NCBI GenBank assembly: GCA_049298935.1
Contig: JBAQWN010000002.1
Location: forward strand, 1-46,495
Length of the DNA: 46,495 bases
Origin: Minisyncoccia bacterium
Lineage (GTDB): Bacteria; Patescibacteriota; Minisyncoccia; Phycocordibacterales; Phycocordibacteraceae
Reading direction: 5' to 3'
In this document: piece after piece, positions 4,201 to 12,651 of the stretch
Layout of the letters: each line of letters starts with the position of its first letter
Numbering within the stretch: the stretch's first letter is position 1
Notes under the pieces: generated by a model
What the model saw: only the letters and a program-made list of their open reading frames with translations
What the model was told of the DNA's origin: nothing
The model's database searches: none
Made by a program: the position numbers and the translations under genes

Positions 4201-6638
4201 AGACTTTCATCTATCAGGAAAAGGTCGGTGCGCTCACTGCTACTGGTCCTCAATCTACCCTCGGTCAATTTACCGTTAGTTCGACGACGATTACCGGTAT
4301 CAACAGCGGCTCAGTCTCCTTCCAGCGCTCCGACGGTAAGTTCGTCGTCATCACTGGTGCGGCCACCACCACCACTGGCACCGTGGTCCAGGTCTATGAC
4401 GCCGGTTGGGTACAGAGTGGTTCCTATAAGTCAGAACAATTTGACCTCTCCCCGGTAGGGACGAAGCTCGATGCCAACTCGACCCTTATATGGAAAGGGA
4501 ACATGTTCTCGACTGCTCTTGGTAGTATCTCAGCAGAAGTGAAGACCGCACCGACACAAGCTGCGCTCGCGACTACCTCTACTCGAACCATTCAGCTGTC
4601 AGGCTCGCTCATTAATCCCGCCGCCACCGATGCCTGGCTTCAGGTTGCATTCAACTTCCGCAGAGCATTCCCTTCATACGACGGTATCTATACCGATGTT
4701 TGGAATTCTGGTAGCGCGATGAGATTCGCGCAACGGCCAGTGTTGACACCAACTCTGTACGAATACAAGGTGACCAAGGATAAAGACCTCCTCGACCTCC
4801 AGTCGGATGGACTCTCAATACTGCGTGTTAGCACTTCAGGCGATGTCTTCACACAGGTGGGCGGGACGATTAACACAAGTGGTGCCGACTTGGCAGAGCG
4901 CTATACCTCTCAGGTCGAGTTGCAGAAGGGCTCGGTGGTCGCTATCGACCCACAGAACAATCACGGAGTGATGCCGTCGAAATACCAATACCAGTCAGAC
5001 ATTCTTGGTGTTGTTTCGACTGATCCAGGATTCGTCGCTGGTGCGTATACCGAAAACTCGTACCCAATCGCTCTCATCGGACGCGTGCCGGTGAACGTCT
5101 CGACTGAAAACGGTATGATCCGCACGGGCGACTACCTCACTGCCGCGAGTGTCCCAGGATATGCGATGAAGGCTGTGCTTTCTGGAAGGGTGATAGGTAA
5201 GGCACTTGAGTCGCTCGACGAGAGTAAGCTTATCGACTGCCCAGCAAGCGATATCTATATGCCAAACCGGAAGTGCGGCACGGTGATGGTCTTTGTTAAC
5301 CTTATCGACTACCAAGGTCAGTCGGTCGACCTCGCGATGAGCGATTGGAACGTGAAGCGGGCAAACATCGTTGCGGCTGGTCTCGCGACAGGGCTCGATA
5401 TCGCGACGTCAACTATGCCAGCAGACGCAGCAGCACAATTTACCTTCAGAGACACTCGCTCGTCCGACATCATGAACTTCCTTGAGAGCTTGAAGGCCGA
5501 GCGCGCGGTGGGAGTAACTTCGCAGTCTGAAATATTTGCCGACAAGATAAGTGCCGTGTCGCAAGTCATCAGTCCTGAGATTGTTGCTAACATTGTAAAT
5601 GCTAAAGAAGGACGTTTCGGTGCTGTTGATGGGCTAGCAATCTCTGCGGGGACGATAACGGCTGATAAGATCATCACTTCGTCGATAAGCTCTTCTGTAG
5701 GCGGATTCACGATGGATCTCTTGCCTGACGGTCGGCTCGTGATGCGCAGAGTCGCCACTGTTTCGATGGCTTCGACATCCTCGACAAGCTCGGAGCAGGC
5801 AAGCTCACCACAAGCAATCACGACAGATATCGCGACCTCGTCACTTCTCGCTTCGGTAGATAGTGCTTTCGCCACTTTGGCATCCTCGACAAGCTTGGAG
5901 CAGGCAACCACTACAGACATAGTGATCAGTTTCGACGCTACCGGCAACGCCTTCTTCGCGGGTGAAGTTGTCGCTCAGAAAGTCTCGACCGGCGCCCTCG
6001 ACGTCTCTGGTCTCGCGAAGTTTGCGGGTGGGCTCGAAGTCGCTTCGCTCGGTATCGCGAGCTCGACGATGGCAATCCTCAGCGACACTTCCTTCATCGG
6101 TCGGCCATATTTCACCTCTGACACAGGTGGCACTGCGACGATTAAAAAAGGTGCACGCTTGGTCGACGTTACATTTGCTAGAGAATATATAGAGACACCA
6201 ATCCTCACAGCATCAATGGTCTTCACTGCCTCGACGACCGATGAAAATATCGATCAGATCTTCTCAGATGATGTGCGCTATGTGGTGACCAAGAGAACAG
6301 CGACAGGATTCACCATATTCTTGAATAAGAAAGCGACGATTGACACGACCTTTAACTGGCTCGCCCTCGCGGTGAAAGATTCGAAGGAGTTTACCTCGCG
6401 CACTGTGCAAGCAGAGCCTGTTGCGCCTCCAGTGCCATTGTCTGACGTTGTTACAGTCTCGACGACAACTCCCATGACAGCATCAACGACTTTGGAAGTC
6501 CCGCTGTTGGATACTTCGACTACGACGCCAGAAGCGGCGACGACTACTCCTGTAACAATAATCTCACTGCCCGACACATCTCTTACGTCAGACGTGCTTC
6601 CTGTGGTTGACCAACTCACTCCACTTCCGCAGGTGTAA
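3..6638 (+). CDS. Giant surface/secreted protein, 5' end outside the window (>=2,211 aa visible). It has tail-fibre-like N-terminal repeats, two beta-propeller plus beta-sandwich modules, a Peptidase_G2-like autoprocessing motif and a Ser/Thr/Pro-rich tail.
   Basis: Frame 3 is open from nt 3, with no stop before the ORF-track ATG at 231. Nt 3-143 encode IPTALATSTLYG..GGYVLGWNNATNGIGWIATSS, the same motif seen at nt ~931-1056 and ~1104-1232, so 231 is an internal Met and the protein continues upstream. Stop TAA at 6636-6638. No TM segment in the visible part. Confidence 0.85.
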   Translation, partial: SSVATIPTALATSTLYGTAPAGGYVLGWNNATNGIGWIATSSTAGGGITTLGDFYHTGLTGIAQTLSTSTADTNLGMTIVSSGTDHLFTPYWIGQLSIARGGTGLSSVSGNQLLYSNSNGTAFAQVSTSTLSIGGNAATVTTNANLSGVITSSGNTTSYAATAGANTILANATGGPAAPTFVSTSTLNIGGTASNITGIVALLNGGTGLSSITGNRLLYTNSAGTAFAQAATSTLYGTGTGGQILAWNNTNAAPTWTATTTIPVGGGVSGTLSNITVVTNANLSGVVTSSGNTTSFGTLAQGILGNPALTATIPTALATSTLYGLSTGGMVLGWNNVTGGLGFVATSSSSGLSAIGANMVLANNTSASAIPTGVSTSTMFGLSTGGKVLGWDNTTGGIGWVATSSAAGGGYTTITDDTNGSLTQVSTLAFLGTGINCINGTGQTECTVNAGAATAAGATGNIQFNTGNSLDAVTNFTWDKTNSRLGVGSSSPMATLTASSTSALIAAAIIDQRGTGALLSLQQGGLDKFTVANGGGLTISAVTSDTVKSTAGTGKTTDFDYPGATLASTTATSDYVTINDGAVPANGGSIAASTSPTTNVAVGAGGQVILRSDGKYIIIHGGGSATASLWNGFAGGAMSATPTAPATGGTVGAGAIAIKRPDGRYIVFHGGGANLSTVFDPYGITATVAGPVPGGACTTGTNAFLRQNGNYIVLCGGTTGWGVYDPSRPAPGALVAGSAIGGNWGAGAHAVQRDDGTFLVYQGGGTGTFIYNPYNNTMTAGPAAPTAIAAGSFSIRRQDGIYLTLPGSANQSFLYSPVSTTTPNGTGGFSANLGVGPSSALADGAQSVWRQDGKYILITANTTVVNVIDQGAGIPGVTAGAQAPVFSNPGAPLALSAAAGAGITAFMLPNGTSAIVRGGGTGIDIVDTNFVTGTNGANTQDAYYESECIDNTNLSPDSTMNWVSNSEGKISVQVRTVTNPTACSAGTYKSIGNSGDLIGAATANNRIQFKFTFQRELPRFMDQEWGVRKTGQTRYRRVNADPTLYSVVVDNGTALHRTQFDFGNAVSSTTAFASGPVAVNLTNDTNRANALALSVGQSATINQTMTQGTGHLYNGTFNSHNVLTTGTASSTVVMKRPDGKWVVIAGNATPNAQVYDETLQTFTALGTTPTAALGTGGFAFKRPDGKYLIVLGNKTTTTNIYDPVANTFIAGPVLTAAAWIGALQIPLPMGRVLIVHGNLTNSTSIYDPIQNTMTTGPTSVTVVGPGSVVIPRPDGTFLFVPGMSAYPICSAVVTTTQFFNPYTMLFTAAGPTNTGGTGPGAFAFQRQDGQWIIVRGGATASTCASVKGTGVYNPFDNQITTTGPTMATAPGLGAQVLPRPDGTWLMIIGGSGGPGVAQTQTFIYQEKVGALTATGPQSTLGQFTVSSTTITGINSGSVSFQRSDGKFVVITGAATTTTGTVVQVYDAGWVQSGSYKSEQFDLSPVGTKLDANSTLIWKGNMFSTALGSISAEVKTAPTQAALATTSTRTIQLSGSLINPAATDAWLQVAFNFRRAFPSYDGIYTDVWNSGSAMRFAQRPVLTPTLYEYKVTKDKDLLDLQSDGLSILRVSTSGDVFTQVGGTINTSGADLAERYTSQVELQKGSVVAIDPQNNHGVMPSKYQYQSDILGVVSTDPGFVAGAYTENSYPIALIGRVPVNVSTENGMIRTGDYLTAASVPGYAMKAVLSGRVIGKALESLDESKLIDCPASDIYMPNRKCGTVMVFVNLIDYQGQSVDLAMSDWNVKRANIVAAGLATGLDIATSTMPADAAAQFTFRDTRSSDIMNFLESLKAERAVGVTSQSEIFADKISAVSQVISPEIVANIVNAKEGRFGAVDGLAISAGTITADKIITSSISSSVGGFTMDLLPDGRLVMRRVATVSMASTSSTSSEQASSPQAITTDIATSSLLASVDSAFATLASSTSLEQATTTDIVISFDATGNAFFAGEVVAQKVSTGALDVSGLAKFAGGLEVASLGIASSTMAILSDTSFIGRPYFTSDTGGTATIKKGARLVDVTFAREYIETPILTASMVFTASTTDENIDQIFSDDVRYVVTKRTATGFTIFLNKKATIDTTFNWLALAVKDSKEFTSRTVQAEPVAPPVPLSDVVTVSTTTPMTASTTLEVPLLDTSTTTPEAATTTPVTIISLPDTSLTSDVLPVVDQLTPLPQV
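1802..3360 (+). repeat. Supermodule 1: ~7 Kelch-like beta-propeller blades followed by a ~180-aa beta-sandwich-like domain
   Basis: Seven ~45-50-aa units each contain [KR]-[RQ]-x-[DN]G-x-[YFW]-[ILV]3-x-GG (RSDGKYIIIHGGG, KRPDGRYIVFHGGG, RQNGNYIVLCGG, QRDDGTFLVYQGGG, RRQDGIYLTLPG, WRQDGKYILITAN, LPNGTSAIVRGGG). They are followed by SECIDNTNLSPDSTMNWVS..NRIQFKFTFQRELP..PTLYSVVVD. Confidence 0.65.
3361..4790 (+). repeat. Supermodule 2: a second 7-blade propeller plus beta-sandwich-like domain, paralogous to supermodule 1
   Basis: Blades are KRPDGKWVVIAGN, KRPDGKYLIVLGN, PLPMGRVLIVHGN, PRPDGTFLFVPG, QRQDGQWIIVRGG, PRPDGTWLMIIGG and QRSDGKFVVITGA. They are followed by SEQFDLSPVGTKLDANSTLIWKG..AWLQVAFNFRRAFP..PTLYEYKVT, which parallels the end of supermodule 1. 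Confidence 0.65.
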
Positions 6639-6639
6639 A

Positions 6640-6648
6640 TGATATAAT
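6640..6648 (+). promoter_or_regulatory. Extended -10-like box TGATATAAT, 9 nt upstream of ATG 6658
   Basis: Perfect TGnTATAAT lies 2 nt after the giant gene's stop. No SD at a usable distance, since AGGG ends 3 nt before the ATG. Confidence 0.5.
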
Positions 6649-6657
6649 CAAGGGACT

Positions 6658-7647
6658 ATGAGGGGGAAATTTGTTGCCAGTGGCGTACTCATTACTATTT
6701 TCTTATTAGGGTTTGCTTCTGACCGTTTATTTTTTCCCACGACAAGTGGGGACAACTGTGTATCAGACTTTACATTCATCAGACAGAATCTTGACTGCAA
6801 TCTTTCTGATAAAAAGATTCAAAACCTTGGAGTGCTCGAAGGGAAGATTAAAGAAGATATTCTTGGATACCAGGAGCAAGGGAAGGTGACTCGAGTAAGC
6901 GTGTTTGCGCGCGATATCTTGTCGAGCCGTTTCGTTGGCGTCAATGAAAATGAAATGTTCTACATGGCGAGCCTCTTGAAGATTCCGGTGCTTGTCGGTG
7001 GCTATAAGCTTGCCGAAGTTGAGCCGAGGCTTCTTGACCAAGAGATACTTTATACGGGAAAGCCGAACCTCTACGATGGGCAAAACATAAAACCAATAGA
7101 AGTGCTCGAAATGGGGAAGAGTTATACAGTACGAGAGCTTATGCGGCGAGCGGTGGTCTATTCTGATAATACGGCTGCACAGCTTCTCTACGATTACTAC
7201 CCAGTTGAATTTCTTGACCGTATTATGGAAGCACTCGGCCTCAGCTTTACCATGCCACAAGGAGTGGCAGAGAACTTCGTTACTGCACGTACTTATGCAA
7301 ATGTGTTCCGCTCACTCTACAATTCCTCCTATCTCACGAGAGAGTATTCAAACGAAGCGCTCTCGTTTTTGACCAAAACAACCTATAGCGACGGTGCGAC
7401 GGCGAAGCTCCCGAAAGATGTTCTTGTCGCGCATAAGTTTGCTGAACGAAGCACAACACTCCCATCTGCCCCTCAAAGACCACTCCGCCAGCTTCATGAA
7501 TGTGGTCTGGTATATGCGAAGAATGGCGCCGAGCCGTACACTTTTTGCATCCTGACCGAAGGCTCAGACTATGAAGCGTTGCAGAATGTCCTGCAAGACT
7601 TATCGCTCGAGATCTATACTGCGATGATCGACGACACTGGTAATTAG
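6658..7647 (+). CDS. Membrane-anchored serine hydrolase, class A beta-lactamase / PBP-like fold
   Basis: N-terminal hydrophobic anchor (FVASGVLITIFLLGFA). SxxK motif in FYMASLLKIPV. SDN loop YSDNTAAQLL closely resembles the class A SDNTAANLL. No clear KTG (HKFAE in that position) and no obvious ExxLN. Confidence 0.7.
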   Translation: MRGKFVASGVLITIFLLGFASDRLFFPTTSGDNCVSDFTFIRQNLDCNLSDKKIQNLGVLEGKIKEDILGYQEQGKVTRVSVFARDILSSRFVGVNENEMFYMASLLKIPVLVGGYKLAEVEPRLLDQEILYTGKPNLYDGQNIKPIEVLEMGKSYTVRELMRRAVVYSDNTAAQLLYDYYPVEFLDRIMEALGLSFTMPQGVAENFVTARTYANVFRSLYNSSYLTREYSNEALSFLTKTTYSDGATAKLPKDVLVAHKFAERSTTLPSAPQRPLRQLHECGLVYAKNGAEPYTFCILTEGSDYEALQNVLQDLSLEIYTAMIDDTGN

Positions 7648-11909: not shown

Positions 11910-11942
11910 ATGTCACTTGGCGGTGAAACCGCCAAGTGACAT
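11910..11942 (+). repeat. Palindromic element copy 1 (upstream flank)
   Basis: ATGTCACTTGGCGG-TGAAA-CCGCCAAGTGACAT: perfect 14-bp stem with a 5-nt loop. Core CTTGGCGGTGAAACCGCCAAG at 11916-11936. Confidence 0.95.
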
Positions 11943-11944
11943 TG

Positions 11945-11953
11945 TGATAGGAT
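11945..11953 (+). promoter_or_regulatory. Extended -10-like box TGATAGGAT, 7 nt upstream of ATG 11961
   Basis: It lies 2 nt after hairpin copy 1, so the hairpin covers the -35 region. No SD is present. Confidence 0.4.
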
Positions 11954-11960
11954 AGTAATA

Positions 11961-12623
11961 ATGAGTACGAGGAAAACGGTTTTTGCGAATGGAGAATTTT
12001 ATCACGTGTACAATCGTGGGGTTGATAAGAGAATTATTTTTTCCGACAATTACGACGCGCAAAGGTTCTTCAAGAGTATGGTTGAATTCAACACGGCCAA
12101 TCCGATCGGGAGCCTGTACGAGAATTCATTTCATCAATTTGGCGGTGAAACCGCCAAGTCAGAAAAGAGGTTAGTTAATATCATTGCGTACTGTCTTAAC
12201 GTAAATCATTTTCACATCATCTTGGAGCAATTGATTGATGGCGGTATTAGTGAGTTTATGAAAAGAATCGGAGGGTACACATGGTACTTCAATAATAAAT
12301 ATAAAAGGAGCGGGTCTTTGTTTCAGGGGGCATTTAGAGATGTTCATATTGATTCGAACGAGTATCTTCTTCATGTAAGTGCATATGTAAATTTAAATGA
12401 CCGTGTTCATCAACTTGGCGGTGAAACCGCCAAGTTGATCGCGAATATGTCGAGCTGGGAAGAGTATACGGACAATGGGCTTAAGGGAATTTGCAAAAAG
12501 GAAATTATTTTAGGACAATTTAAAAATATTGATGAGTACAAAGAGTATGCACTCTCGTCGCTGGAATCAATTATAAAAAGAAAAGAAGATTTGAAAGATC
12601 TCGATAAGTTTCTACTCGAGTAG
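11961..12623 (+). CDS. HUH-Y1 transposase-like protein (IS200/IS605 TnpA / REP-associated tyrosine transposase family)
   Basis: N-terminal FYHVYNRG. HUH motif NHFHIIL (H83, H85). KRSGSLFQGAFR block. Tyr region SAYVNLN (Y142), corresponding to the YIHLNP of COG1943-type proteins. Confidence 0.75.
   Translation: MSTRKTVFANGEFYHVYNRGVDKRIIFSDNYDAQRFFKSMVEFNTANPIGSLYENSFHQFGGETAKSEKRLVNIIAYCLNVNHFHIILEQLIDGGISEFMKRIGGYTWYFNNKYKRSGSLFQGAFRDVHIDSNEYLLHVSAYVNLNDRVHQLGGETAKLIANMSSWEEYTDNGLKGICKKEIILGQFKNIDEYKEYALSSLESIIKRKEDLKDLDKFLLE
12137..12159 (+). repeat. Palindromic element copy 2 (inside the transposase CDS, in frame)
   Basis: TTTGGCGGTGAAACCGCCAAG at 12138-12158. Perfect 7-bp stem, plus one G-U wobble and one A-T pair, with loop TGAAA. 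Translated as F-GGETAK-S (aa 60-67). Confidence 0.95.
12409..12439 (+). repeat. Palindromic element copy 3 (inside the transposase CDS, in frame)
   Basis: ATCAACTTGGCGG-TGAAA-CCGCCAAGTTGAT: perfect 13-bp stem. Core at 12414-12434. Translated as L-GGETAK-L (aa 152-159). Confidence 0.95.
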
Positions 12624-12651
12624 TCACTTGGCGGTGAAACCGCCAAGTGAT
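12623..12651 (+). repeat. Palindromic element copy 4 (downstream flank, starts in the stop codon)
   Basis: TCACTTGGCGG-TGAAA-CCGCCAAGTGA: perfect 11-bp stem (12624-12650) plus a G-T wobble. Core at 12627-12647. The TAG stop is at 12621-12623. Confidence 0.95.

Follow-up and report, generated by a model that had tools for sequence, protein, structure and literature searches.

A palindromic hairpin at both ends of, and in frame within, a RAYT-like Y1/HUH gene of Patescibacteria

The window, that is, the whole 46.5-kb stretch of DNA that was analysed, comes from an ultra-small bacterium (Patescibacteria) and carries at positions 11961–12623 (+ strand) a gene for a 220-aa protein, which its open reading frame, motifs and fold match mark as a RAYT-like Y1/HUH enzyme. 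The HUH motif, NHFH (residues 82–85; 12204–12215, + strand), is followed by a catalytic-type tyrosine, Tyr142 (12384–12386, + strand), within YVNLN; further downstream the protein has an SSW tail motif and a C-terminal part made of helices. H83, H85 and Y142 are invariant among 120 homologue sequences. The family consensus at the tyrosine is YVNLND, with Asp at the place where class 2 Y---NP proteins have Pro. Against Pfam Y1_Tnp (PF01797), the window protein scored 22.9 bits with a gathering cut-off of 23.0; a precomputed match to PF01797 is present in most of its close homologues. The curated RAYT model NF047646 (NCBIfam) gave 20.6 bits, below its cut-off of 80, and ten relatives scored 19.9–27.2 bits against the same model. 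A PDB sequence search using a family-alignment profile produced no match at E ≤ 1. When an AF2 model of moderate quality (pLDDT 67) was submitted to Foldseek, the best PDB fold match was 4ER8 (E 5.5e-4, probability 1.0, TM 0.39/0.50), a REP-associated tyrosine transposase with a REP hairpin bound, and the next matches were 2A6M, 2VJV and 2XM3, representing IS608 and ISDra2 TnpA. The model places Tyr142 on a predicted helix (residues 133–145). An earlier AF2 model, based on 22 sequences, reached only pLDDT 44.5 and was not usable.

Exactly four matches to the palindromic 19-mer TTGGCGGTGAAACCGCCAA are present in the window (11917, 12139, 12415 and 12628). All lie at this one gene, two flanking it and two inside it in frame, and their loop orientation is identical. 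Shuffled sequence would be expected to hold 0.01 matches to the 19-mer, and a count of four was reached in 0 of 100 shuffles. The 5' flank hairpin, F5 (11910–11942; an unstranded feature, like F3), reads ATGTCACTTGGCGGT-gaa-ACCGCCAAGTGACAT, a 15-bp perfect stem with a GAA triloop. The 3' flank hairpin, F3 (12624–12650), reads TCACTTGGCGGT-gaa-ACCGCCAAGTGA, has a 12-bp stem, begins immediately past the stop codon and is not followed by a T-run. On the + strand, internal hairpin I1 has a 21-nt core at 12138–12158 with an 8-bp perfect stem (12139–12157) and a GAA loop, and internal hairpin I2 (12409–12439, core 12414–12434) reads ATCAACTTGGCGGT-gaa-ACCGCCAAGTTGAT, with a 14-bp perfect stem. I1 is translated as F60-GGETAK66 (residues 58–67, HQFGGETAKS) and I2 as (H)QLGGETAKLI (residues 150–159, HQLGGETAKL, with LGGETAK at 152–158). 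On recheck, the coordinates and residues that the first-pass annotation had given for the reading frame, the cores and the two GGETAK segments were all correct.

The internal copies share TCATCAAYTTGGCGGTGAAACCGCCAAGT, whereas the flank copies read GTCACTTGG...CCAAGTGA; expressed as feet, the flank type is CACTTGG...CCAAGTG and the internal type CAACTTGG...CCAAGTTG. Predicted folding energies as single-stranded DNA are −17.8 (F5), −9.0 (I1), −16.1 (I2) and −14.5 kcal/mol (F3), with Z-scores for the four copies from −5.5 to −9.8. In the AF2 model, the I1 peptide falls in a low-confidence linker between helix 1 and strand 2, ahead of the HUH motif (residues 50–66 have pLDDT below 50). The I2 peptide forms the turn of a predicted beta-hairpin (strands 148–151 and 158–161) right after the tyrosine helix, which agrees with the earlier placement of the second copy just past the catalytic tyrosine. 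A search of the hairpins against Rfam matched no family and returned only sub-threshold chance matches. A consensus promoter and terminator scan at the hairpins detected no attenuator, terminator or promoter features, and the proposal that the hairpins are attenuator structures found no support there.

An extended −10-like motif, TGATAGGAT (11945–11953, + strand), ends 7 nt before the ATG. Of 156 family loci, 100 have a match to TGNTANN[AC]T in the 40 nt preceding the ATG, mostly ending 6–9 nt before it, as against 6/156 in a control window. This recurrence suggests that TGATAGGAT is a putative promoter, one that would yield a leaderless mRNA. F5 lies where the −35 element of this putative promoter would be, and the overlap may make it the copy likeliest to have a regulatory effect. 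The consensus promoter scan missed TGATAGGAT.

The four hairpin positions are the same in 160 related Patescibacteria loci, 80 from genomes and 80 from metagenomes. Because the arrangement recurs in independent assemblies, an assembly artefact, which had been raised as a doubt, is excluded. The homologous site is occupied at F5 in 118, at I1 in 70 and at I2 in 79 of 156 relatives. Among relatives at least 50% identical, most have the I1 and I2 codon positions filled; in many family members one internal copy or both are missing from a gene that is intact. Retention of the I1 and I2 sites has phylogenetic signal (36 parsimony steps versus ~52 when shuffled). In the close relatives P0064, P0069 and P0040 the internal copies are mutationally decayed. 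Sequence similarity to relatives stops just beyond F3. The first-pass annotation had also considered recent, clean insertions into the gene. We rejected this, as the two codon positions are filled in most relatives at least 50% identical and linkers with and without the motif do not differ by ~7 aa: they measure 17 versus 16 aa at one site and 13 versus 12 aa at the other. The NCBIfam match ends at profile position 130–136 in members with and without I2 alike and does not bear on whether I2 interrupts a conserved segment, as the first-pass annotation had proposed. Since the linker lengths are so nearly equal, insertion at the two sites in the Y1 gene is not demonstrated.

Across the family, the outer stem of the hairpin is conserved (ACTTGG/CCAAGT), the inner stem is free to vary, and a triloop caps it. 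I2 stems often reach 13–18 bp and extend into conserved codons, with modest covariation of the outer pairs (P 0.003–0.03). In flank and solo copies, CCAAGT is followed by a purine, giving GTGG, GTGA or GTAG at the 3' side. The 5' GT[AG]G foot that is canonical for REPs is absent. Internal copies lack the purine foot of the flank and solo copies and avoid it even where no stop codon would arise. Loops reading TAA or TGA are found in flank copies only, and no internal loop makes a stop codon. Together with the invariance of the HUH motif and the tyrosine, this exclusion shows that purifying selection acts on the reading frame. As the stems change, so do the peptides they encode (GGETAK, GGPTPK, SGSTPK, GSLASK, GHSVSK), and loop flips alter the encoded residues, E to F or P to R. 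Family loci also show flipped loops, nested hairpins and tandem duplications of half a hairpin. Paralogues within one genome are divergent and each has its own hairpin type. Near-identical multi-copy elements were not seen, identical copies occurring only in the same context (L084–L087).

In a set of 80 internal hairpins, selected because their perfect stems measured 7 bp or more, the covariation score was 0.42 compared with 0.175 after shuffling that ignores phylogeny, and 0/500 shuffles reached 0.42. Each inner stem pair had 14–38 double changes. This pattern shows that stem pairing is kept by compensatory change and that the internal palindromes act at the nucleic-acid level. It also bears out the earlier view that they are the same element as the flank hairpins, read through in frame, with stems that co-vary and peptides that follow.

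The copies at one locus also resemble each other. An 11-nt core was identical in 161 of 198 within-locus pairs versus 61 of 4613 between-locus pairs, and in 69 of 120 close homologues the same heptapeptide is encoded at both internal sites, compared with 10.4% identity of heptapeptides between proteins. A single imperfect hairpin is common to three or four copies in each of L083/L092, L093 and L096/97. The loops of F5 and F3 are oriented alike in 19 loci and are flipped relative to each other in 15. At 11 loci gap (GAPDH) lies directly downstream, and there Y1 identity (52–85%) tracks GAPDH identity (48–87%); the hairpin cores differ among these loci despite their vertical inheritance. We found no general synteny across the whole family, neighbours being common only within sub-groups. 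Because concerted change holds in the gap-linked orthologues and for imperfect hairpins, the comparisons show that the copies of one locus are homogenised by copying and not only by selection for pairing. Locus L004 had looked chimeric, as if cassettes were exchanged at hairpins; the divergence of its C-terminal segment does not exceed that of ordinary pairs, leaving such exchange unsupported.

Solo hairpins of a locus's own type are sparse near the relatives, at 24 in ~697 kb of flanking DNA, or about one per 29 kb. In another count, 192 hairpins were at the gene versus 22 in 423 kb of flank. Most solo copies lie between genes, and either loop orientation occurs among them. One of them, in the ychF gene of L018, is in frame and corresponds to a 7-residue excess relative to PDB entries 1jal and 8kie; the tgt gene of L129 differs in length by just 1 residue. 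The ychF copy shows that the family hairpin can settle in frame in other genes. It also makes the earlier comparison with Rickettsia palindromic elements apt, the relative's own hairpin being the one found in ychF. Short palindromic repeats in frame within genes that stay functional have been described (Di Nocera et al. 2013, PMC3733652). The present locus resembles these elements and intragenic REPs in having an in-frame short palindrome, as in ychF of L018, but differs in that the host gene is the putative mobilising enzyme and that two sites are fixed family-wide and co-evolve with the flank copies.

The first-pass annotation knew of no Y1 transposase gene carrying its own hairpins in frame. 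Such a case has in fact been reported: Quentin, Siguier, Chandler and Fichant (2018, PMC6006769) described REPs in frame inside subclass 2.4 TnpA-REP (RAYT group 4) genes, and the in-frame hairpins found here are a variant of it. Both systems have a Y1/HUH gene flanked by its cognate palindromic repeat, internal copies that keep the frame, and an encoded segment that is peripheral and variable. In subclass 2.4, however, the inserts lie between the HUH and tyrosine motifs, whereas I1 (60–66) precedes the HUH motif and I2 (152–158) follows Y142. The repeats of subclass 2.4 are long and have either GT[AG]G feet or a 'double foot', their proteins have WQ and YIxNNP motifs, and their hosts are Cyanobacteria and Bacteroidetes; here short perfect palindromes with an ACTTGG/CCAAGT outer stem accompany FQ and YVNLND motifs in Patescibacteria. 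In PMC6006769 we found no mention of the locus-wide concerted change with flank copies that is seen here. By eye, the key motifs match best those of subclass 2.1 TnpA-Y1 (RAYT group 1/TIRYT), namely NH[YF]H, FQ, a Y[IV]HLNP-like motif, an SS tail motif and a length of 220–240 aa; no associated REPs have been reported for that subclass (Quentin et al. 2018, PMC6006769).

The E. coli TnpA-REP (RAYT) REPtron provides the best structural match (4ER8) and likewise has a gene bracketed by cognate hairpins, low copy number, vertical inheritance and a hairpin family specific to the gene copy. The present locus differs from it in its NF047646 score, in having no 5' GTAG guide and a barely dispersed hairpin, and in its 60-aa helical C-terminal tail and two intragenic copies. 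IS200/IS605 elements (IS608 and ISDra2 TnpA) share the Y1/HUH fold, a small unit (~740 bp) and a hairpin at each end. Unlike these elements, which have a Y---Q motif, a core-only protein of ~150 aa and distinct, imperfect left and right hairpins, the locus has Y---N (YVNLN), 220 aa with a C-terminal tail and the same perfect palindrome at both ends in either loop orientation. Nor were near-identical multi-copy elements seen, and inheritance is vertical and syntenic in some lineages; a search of viral contigs for family relatives found none. Literature searches for a hairpin-bearing Y1 family in Patescibacteria/CPR retrieved nothing relevant.

Taken together, the locus is probably a REPtron-like unit belonging to a RAYT-like Y1/HUH family that is specific to Patescibacteria, with a cognate hairpin that also fills two tolerant segments of the protein. 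Such a unit would comprise a vertically inherited nuclease gene and a cognate REP-like DNA hairpin, placed once at each gene end and twice in frame inside, with rare solo copies elsewhere in the genome. The disordered linker before the HUH motif and the beta-hairpin turn after the tyrosine helix would tolerate any heptapeptide. By analogy with E. coli TnpA-REP, the encoded enzyme may bind and process the hairpins in single-stranded DNA. As to the role of the internal copies and how they are copied, we infer that the enzyme's activity, or hairpin-driven template switching, may copy a core of ~19–23 nt between sites and that the internal copies would be tolerated passengers with no part in protein function. 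Because internal copies lack the purine foot, excision and insertion of the whole unit by the enzyme is not an obvious homogenising route. Several observations speak against a REP/RAYT reading: the curated RAYT models score 20–27 bits where 80 is the cut-off, the canonical 5' GT[AG]G foot is missing, and, unlike in classical REP families, the hairpin is very scarce away from the locus, with no copy in the other ~46 kb of the window and about one per 29 kb near relatives.

Homogenisation may instead have nothing to do with the enzyme, the hairpins being neutral self-perpetuating DNA that is equalised by replication-associated template switching or short-patch conversion between palindromes. We regard this as possible, if on the unlikely side. 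Imperfect hairpins are copied as such, hairpin-mediated template switching typically leaves flipped loops, nested hairpins and half-hairpin duplications like those seen here, and the differing feet of internal and flank copies imply that only the core is exchanged; but the tie of the hairpin to the gene family in many lineages (192 copies at the gene against 22 in flanks) and the separate hairpin type of each paralogue in a genome would go unexplained, and the homologous arms are merely ~6–10 bp. It is rather unlikely that the internal hairpins are functional cis-sites, at which the enzyme or another factor would bind its own DNA or mRNA at I1 and I2, along with F5 and F3, giving feedback on expression or on locus stability. 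Many members lack one or both copies and have an intact gene, the copies have decayed in P0064, P0069 and P0040, terminator and attenuator features are absent, and flipped loops make a loop-specific RNA signal unlikely. The same reading would account for the retention of the I1 and I2 positions across a large clade with phylogenetic signal, for the long I2 stems reaching into conserved codons with modest outer-pair covariation, for the overlap of F5 with the putative promoter and for the avoidance of the flank-type foot by internal copies. A more elaborate form, which we consider improbable, makes the internal copies part of a self-referential, self-maintaining repeat population, in which the enzyme would re-copy the core among the four fixed sites and read them as cis-regulatory or self-nicking signals. 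Hairpin copies would then lie inside indispensable parts of their own reading frame, and gene and repeat could not be lost separately.

A transcript would include I1, I2 and F3, F3 directly adjoins the stop codon as many REPs do, and many REPs have been argued to act as RNA (Di Nocera et al. 2013, PMC3733652), all of which would suit stem-loops that work as attenuators or stabilise the mRNA from inside the coding region and behind it. Such an RNA role nevertheless seems quite doubtful to us: F5 precedes the likely transcription start, most solo copies fall between genes with the loop in either orientation, no T-run, terminator-like site or Rfam family match accompanies the hairpins, and the element is linked to the fold of a nuclease acting on single-stranded DNA hairpins. 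The first-pass annotation had further listed progressive inactivation of the gene, which would mean that mobile hairpins arrived in frame recently and are gradually disabling it. The hairpin is able to insert into other genes, but the same positions are filled across the family, the catalytic residues are invariant, protein identity tracks GAPDH in syntenic orthologues, and loop versions that form stops are excluded from internal copies; we hold this extremely unlikely. The palindrome might finally be a by-product of a conserved peptide motif under protein-level constraint only, as GG-x-T-x-K-like peptides recur at both positions in homologues. To this we give next to no credence: identical palindromes occur in the non-coding flanks and in solo intergenic copies, and the peptides vary freely as the stems co-vary, loop flips included. 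Homologues with GGETAK-like segments have the palindrome too, and the peptide variants track the non-coding flank copies, against an origin from conserved coding sequence.

Classical REP families consist of many dispersed intergenic copies. To our knowledge, the case that RAYT-type enzymes move or maintain REP hairpins in living cells has been argued mostly from correlation, and Patescibacteria, with their reduced genomes, are not known for REP-type repeats. For annotation, the reading of the locus as a probable REPtron-like unit means that peptide 'motifs' such as LGGETAK may be dictated by DNA structure and not by protein function. REP/RAYT-type systems would be extended to Patescibacteria, and the family would be a stripped-down case in which almost all hairpin copies are confined to four fixed positions, which can be aligned, of a vertically inherited locus. 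Because the positions are fixed and the locus is inherited vertically, core replacements, loop flips and the spread of imperfect variants can be counted across hundreds of orthologues.

The window, 46,495 bases and an entire contig of a Minisyncoccia MAG, contains exactly four copies of the 19-mer TTGGCGGTGAAACCGCCAA, starting at 11917, 12139, 12415 and 12628. Loop orientation is identical in all four copies, and a shuffled window is expected to contain 0.01 matches. One flank hairpin lies 5' of a 220-aa ORF (F5, 11910-11942, 15-bp stem) and the other begins directly after its stop codon (F3, 12624-12650, 12-bp stem). The two internal hairpins are in the frame of the ORF: I1 (core 12138-12158) encodes FGGETAK, residues 60-66, and I2 (12409-12439, 14-bp stem) encodes LGGETAK, residues 152-158. 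Single-stranded DNA folding predicts a GAA-triloop hairpin at each site, with a stability far above that of shuffled sequence. The four-hairpin arrangement is real and far beyond chance, and the first-pass annotation had the coordinates, the encoded residues and the shared context of the internal copies right throughout. The spacings of the four copies (222, 276 and 213 nt) are multiples of three, so that all lie in the frame of the ORF; if translated in that frame, F5 and F3 would each give LGGETAK and then a stop codon. The common frame is not kept in relatives, among which the frame of F3 differs.

The ORF (11961-12623, + strand) encodes a divergent Y1/HUH enzyme. Its product scores 22.9 bits with Pfam Y1_Tnp (cut-off 23) and only 20.6 bits with the curated RAYT model NF047646 (cut-off 80), which gives 20-27 bits with ten relatives, and a profile search of PDB sequences with the family returned no match. 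Across 120 aligned close homologues, neither the HUH histidines (NHFH, residues 82-85) nor Tyr142 (YVNLN) vary. An AlphaFold2 model built from this alignment (pLDDT 67, pTM 0.65) has the expected order of strands and helices, and its top PDB match is 4ER8 (E 5.5e-4), the E. coli REP-associated tyrosine transposase with a REP hairpin bound, followed by the TnpA proteins of IS608 and ISDra2. The protein's NHFH, LFQG and YVNLND motifs and its SSW tail, compared by eye, are closest to the subclass 2.1 described by Quentin et al. (2018). The NCBI gene call (P0002) is N-terminally short, with 181 aa starting at Met40, and leaves out a conserved N-terminal strand (FYHVYNRGVDKR) found in the 220-aa family ORF.

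The Y1 family has many members and is restricted to Patescibacteria. Of 2,690 homologues found by a word-indexed search, the best 120 all have about 220 aa and 70-80% identity. When 50%-identity representatives were searched exhaustively, 196 clusters matched at E <= 1e-30 and 2,782 at E <= 1e-10. Source names include Minisyncoccia, Kaiserbacteria and Parcubacteria, to which the genome records of the loci add Giovannonibacteria and others, some labelled Saccharibacteria. No relative was found in the viral contigs searched. In eleven loci (L001, L005, L007, L081, L083, L084, L086, L087, L092, L094, L143), gap (GAPDH) lies directly downstream of the Y1 gene, and pairwise Y1 identity (52-85%) tracks GAPDH identity (48-87%). 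This points to long-term vertical inheritance, with the Y1 gene a syntenic resident of the gap-linked lineage. Some genomes carry two or three divergent Y1 paralogues, each with its own hairpin core type: MFHJ01 (L025, L029, L058), MFIM01 (L026, L028, 6 kb apart) and JAUYMO01 (L019, L059). In L084, L088, L094, L098 and L003, the upstream gene stops immediately before F5 and the C-termini are alike (roughly ...E[VI][KR]QLY...R*), which suggests a shared neighbour or a preferred location.

When 80 genome and 80 metagenome loci were scanned for perfect stems, hairpins were found at the same four positions, with centres at about -26 to -37 from the ATG, about +181 to +217, about +448 to +511 and just beyond the stop codon. 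At least two concordant copies are present in 129 of 161 loci, and all four in 26. Similarity among relatives ends immediately outside F5 and F3, which therefore delimit the conserved unit. The ACTTGG/CCAAGT outer stem is nearly invariant, and it is the triloop and 3-4 base pairs of the inner stem that vary from locus to locus; 5' inner arms include GCGGT, GGGGT, GAAGT, GAGGC, GGTGT, GACAC and GAAAC, with a complementary 3' arm each time.

Could the palindrome be a by-product of a conserved peptide? The encoded peptides shift with the stems (GGETAK, GGETPK, GGPTAK, SGSTPK, GSLASK, GHSVSK), an observation free of the ascertainment for perfect stems, and the flank copies, which are non-coding, match the internal copies in sequence; these findings jointly exclude the idea. 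In 80 internal hairpins, chosen for perfect stems of 7 bp or more, each of the four inner pairs has 14-38 double changes. The covariation score of this set is 0.42 compared to 0.175 in shuffles that take no account of relatedness, none of 500 reaching 0.42. The hairpin structure is maintained at the nucleic-acid level. Independent selection for pairing at each site is not sufficient. With either loop orientation counted, two copies of one locus share the 11-nt core in 161 of 198 pairs, compared to 61 of 4,613 pairs of copies at the same position in different loci. The two internal heptapeptides are likewise identical in 69 of 120 close homologues, a set not selected on DNA, compared to 10.4% between proteins. 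In gap-linked orthologues, cores differ between loci, yet are common to the copies within each, and an identical imperfect hairpin recurs in three or four copies of one locus (L083/L092, L093, L096/97). It follows that homogenisation proceeds by copying. L003 contains both possible half-compensated intermediates. The copied tract is about 19-23 nt, beyond which bases are position-specific; the copying may be done by the enzyme itself or by template switching during replication.

Triloops are frequently reverse-complemented between copies of one locus, and some of these flips (gaa/ttc, tcg/cga, aag/ctt) need three base changes, which identifies them as true inversions. In about half of cases the loop of F5 has the opposite orientation to that of the other copies; I1, I2 and F3 mostly match one another. 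Where the loop pair is tta/taa or tca/tga, internal copies always have the sense version and flanks may have the stop version; the Y1 reading frame is protected. In flank and solo copies (solo copies being those away from the Y1 gene), CCAAGT is followed by a purine 79-90% of the time, giving a GTGG, GTGA or GTAG foot, versus a pyrimidine 97-98% of the time in internal copies. Stop avoidance accounts for only part of this contrast: at this point inside the gene, TGG, TGY and TAY codons hardly occur either. Either the protein needs Leu159 or flank-type feet are selected against there.

In the structural model, the I1 peptide lies ahead of the HUH motif, in a low-confidence loop (residues 50-66, pLDDT below 50) that joins helix 1 to strand 2. 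The I2 peptide follows directly on the Tyr helix as the turn of a beta-hairpin (strands 148-151 and 158-161). The first-pass placement of I2 after the catalytic Tyr thus agrees with the model. The Y---N motif itself is intact. I2 may replace the VRAGLV-like stretch of canonical RAYTs, a reading that depends on alignment by eye, for example with a hairpin-less relative that reads NKVHKNNGLY; the extents of HMM alignments favor neither outcome. In a comparison of 282 family members, the strict motif was frequent in proteins more than 60% identical to that of the window and rare in those less than 50% identical (6-7 of 93). Its presence requires 36 parsimony steps compared to about 52 when shuffled, indicating phylogenetic signal, yet many changes. 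Clean recent insertions at I1 and I2 are contradicted by linkers of near-equal length with and without the motif (17 versus 16 aa, and 13 versus 12 aa) and by close relatives having lost the palindromes through point mutation, not excision. Together with the family-wide occurrence, these data indicate that hairpins have long occupied the two sites, which are variable segments, and have been renewed there again and again.

That the hairpin itself is mobile is supported by 24 own-type solo copies, mostly intergenic, in about 697 kb of flanking DNA. One (CAACTTGGAGGTttcACCTCCAAGTTG) lies in frame in ychF of L018 (1157-2260), its centre about 1177 nt upstream of the Y1 ATG; it encodes QLGGFTSKL, and YchF has a 7-residue excess there in alignments to two solved YchF proteins. 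Another, with a 13-bp stem, lies inside tgt of L129 (tRNA-guanine transglycosylase, 5738-6940) and is read in a different frame (AHLDVRRPSGY), with a one-residue length difference from solved Tgt proteins. Hairpins are also rearranged: there are tandem duplications of a single arm (half-hairpin), a hairpin whose loop contains a second one, and inverted dimers, and one gene has an array of at least five upstream. Rearrangements occur at gene ends (L048, L040, L069, L024, L058), in the L043 flanks, in the L159 upstream region, and about 194 nt (L089) and 74 nt (L052) upstream of the ATG.

The hairpins probably act as DNA rather than RNA. A scan of the hairpins found no terminator-like site, and no Rfam family fits them. 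Of 156 family loci, 100 have an extended -10-like motif, TGNTANN[AC]T, in the 40 nt that precede the ATG (6 of 156 in a control window), mostly ending 6-9 nt before the ATG; the window copy is at 11945-11953. This position suggests a leaderless mRNA that would not include F5, with F5 over the putative -35 region.

In-frame repeat hairpins inside genes have already been described. Di Nocera et al. (2013, PMC3733652) catalogued REPs that lie within genes and refer to the Rickettsia palindromic elements, which are in frame, and Quentin et al. (2018, PMC6006769) reported in-frame REPs inside subclass 2.4 tnpA-REP genes. We found no literature on this Y1 family or on REPs in Patescibacteria. Compared to the subclass 2.4 case, the window system differs in protein family, hairpin type and insert positions, its hairpin has a very low genomic copy number, and concerted change in situ is demonstrable in its family. 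Any function ascribed to the internal copies is putative. The best explanation, which we consider somewhat better than evenly likely, is that these Patescibacteria have a REP/RAYT-like system in which the cognate hairpin is also present at two tolerant in-frame sites of the enzyme's own gene; all hairpin copies are kept alike by short-tract copying.
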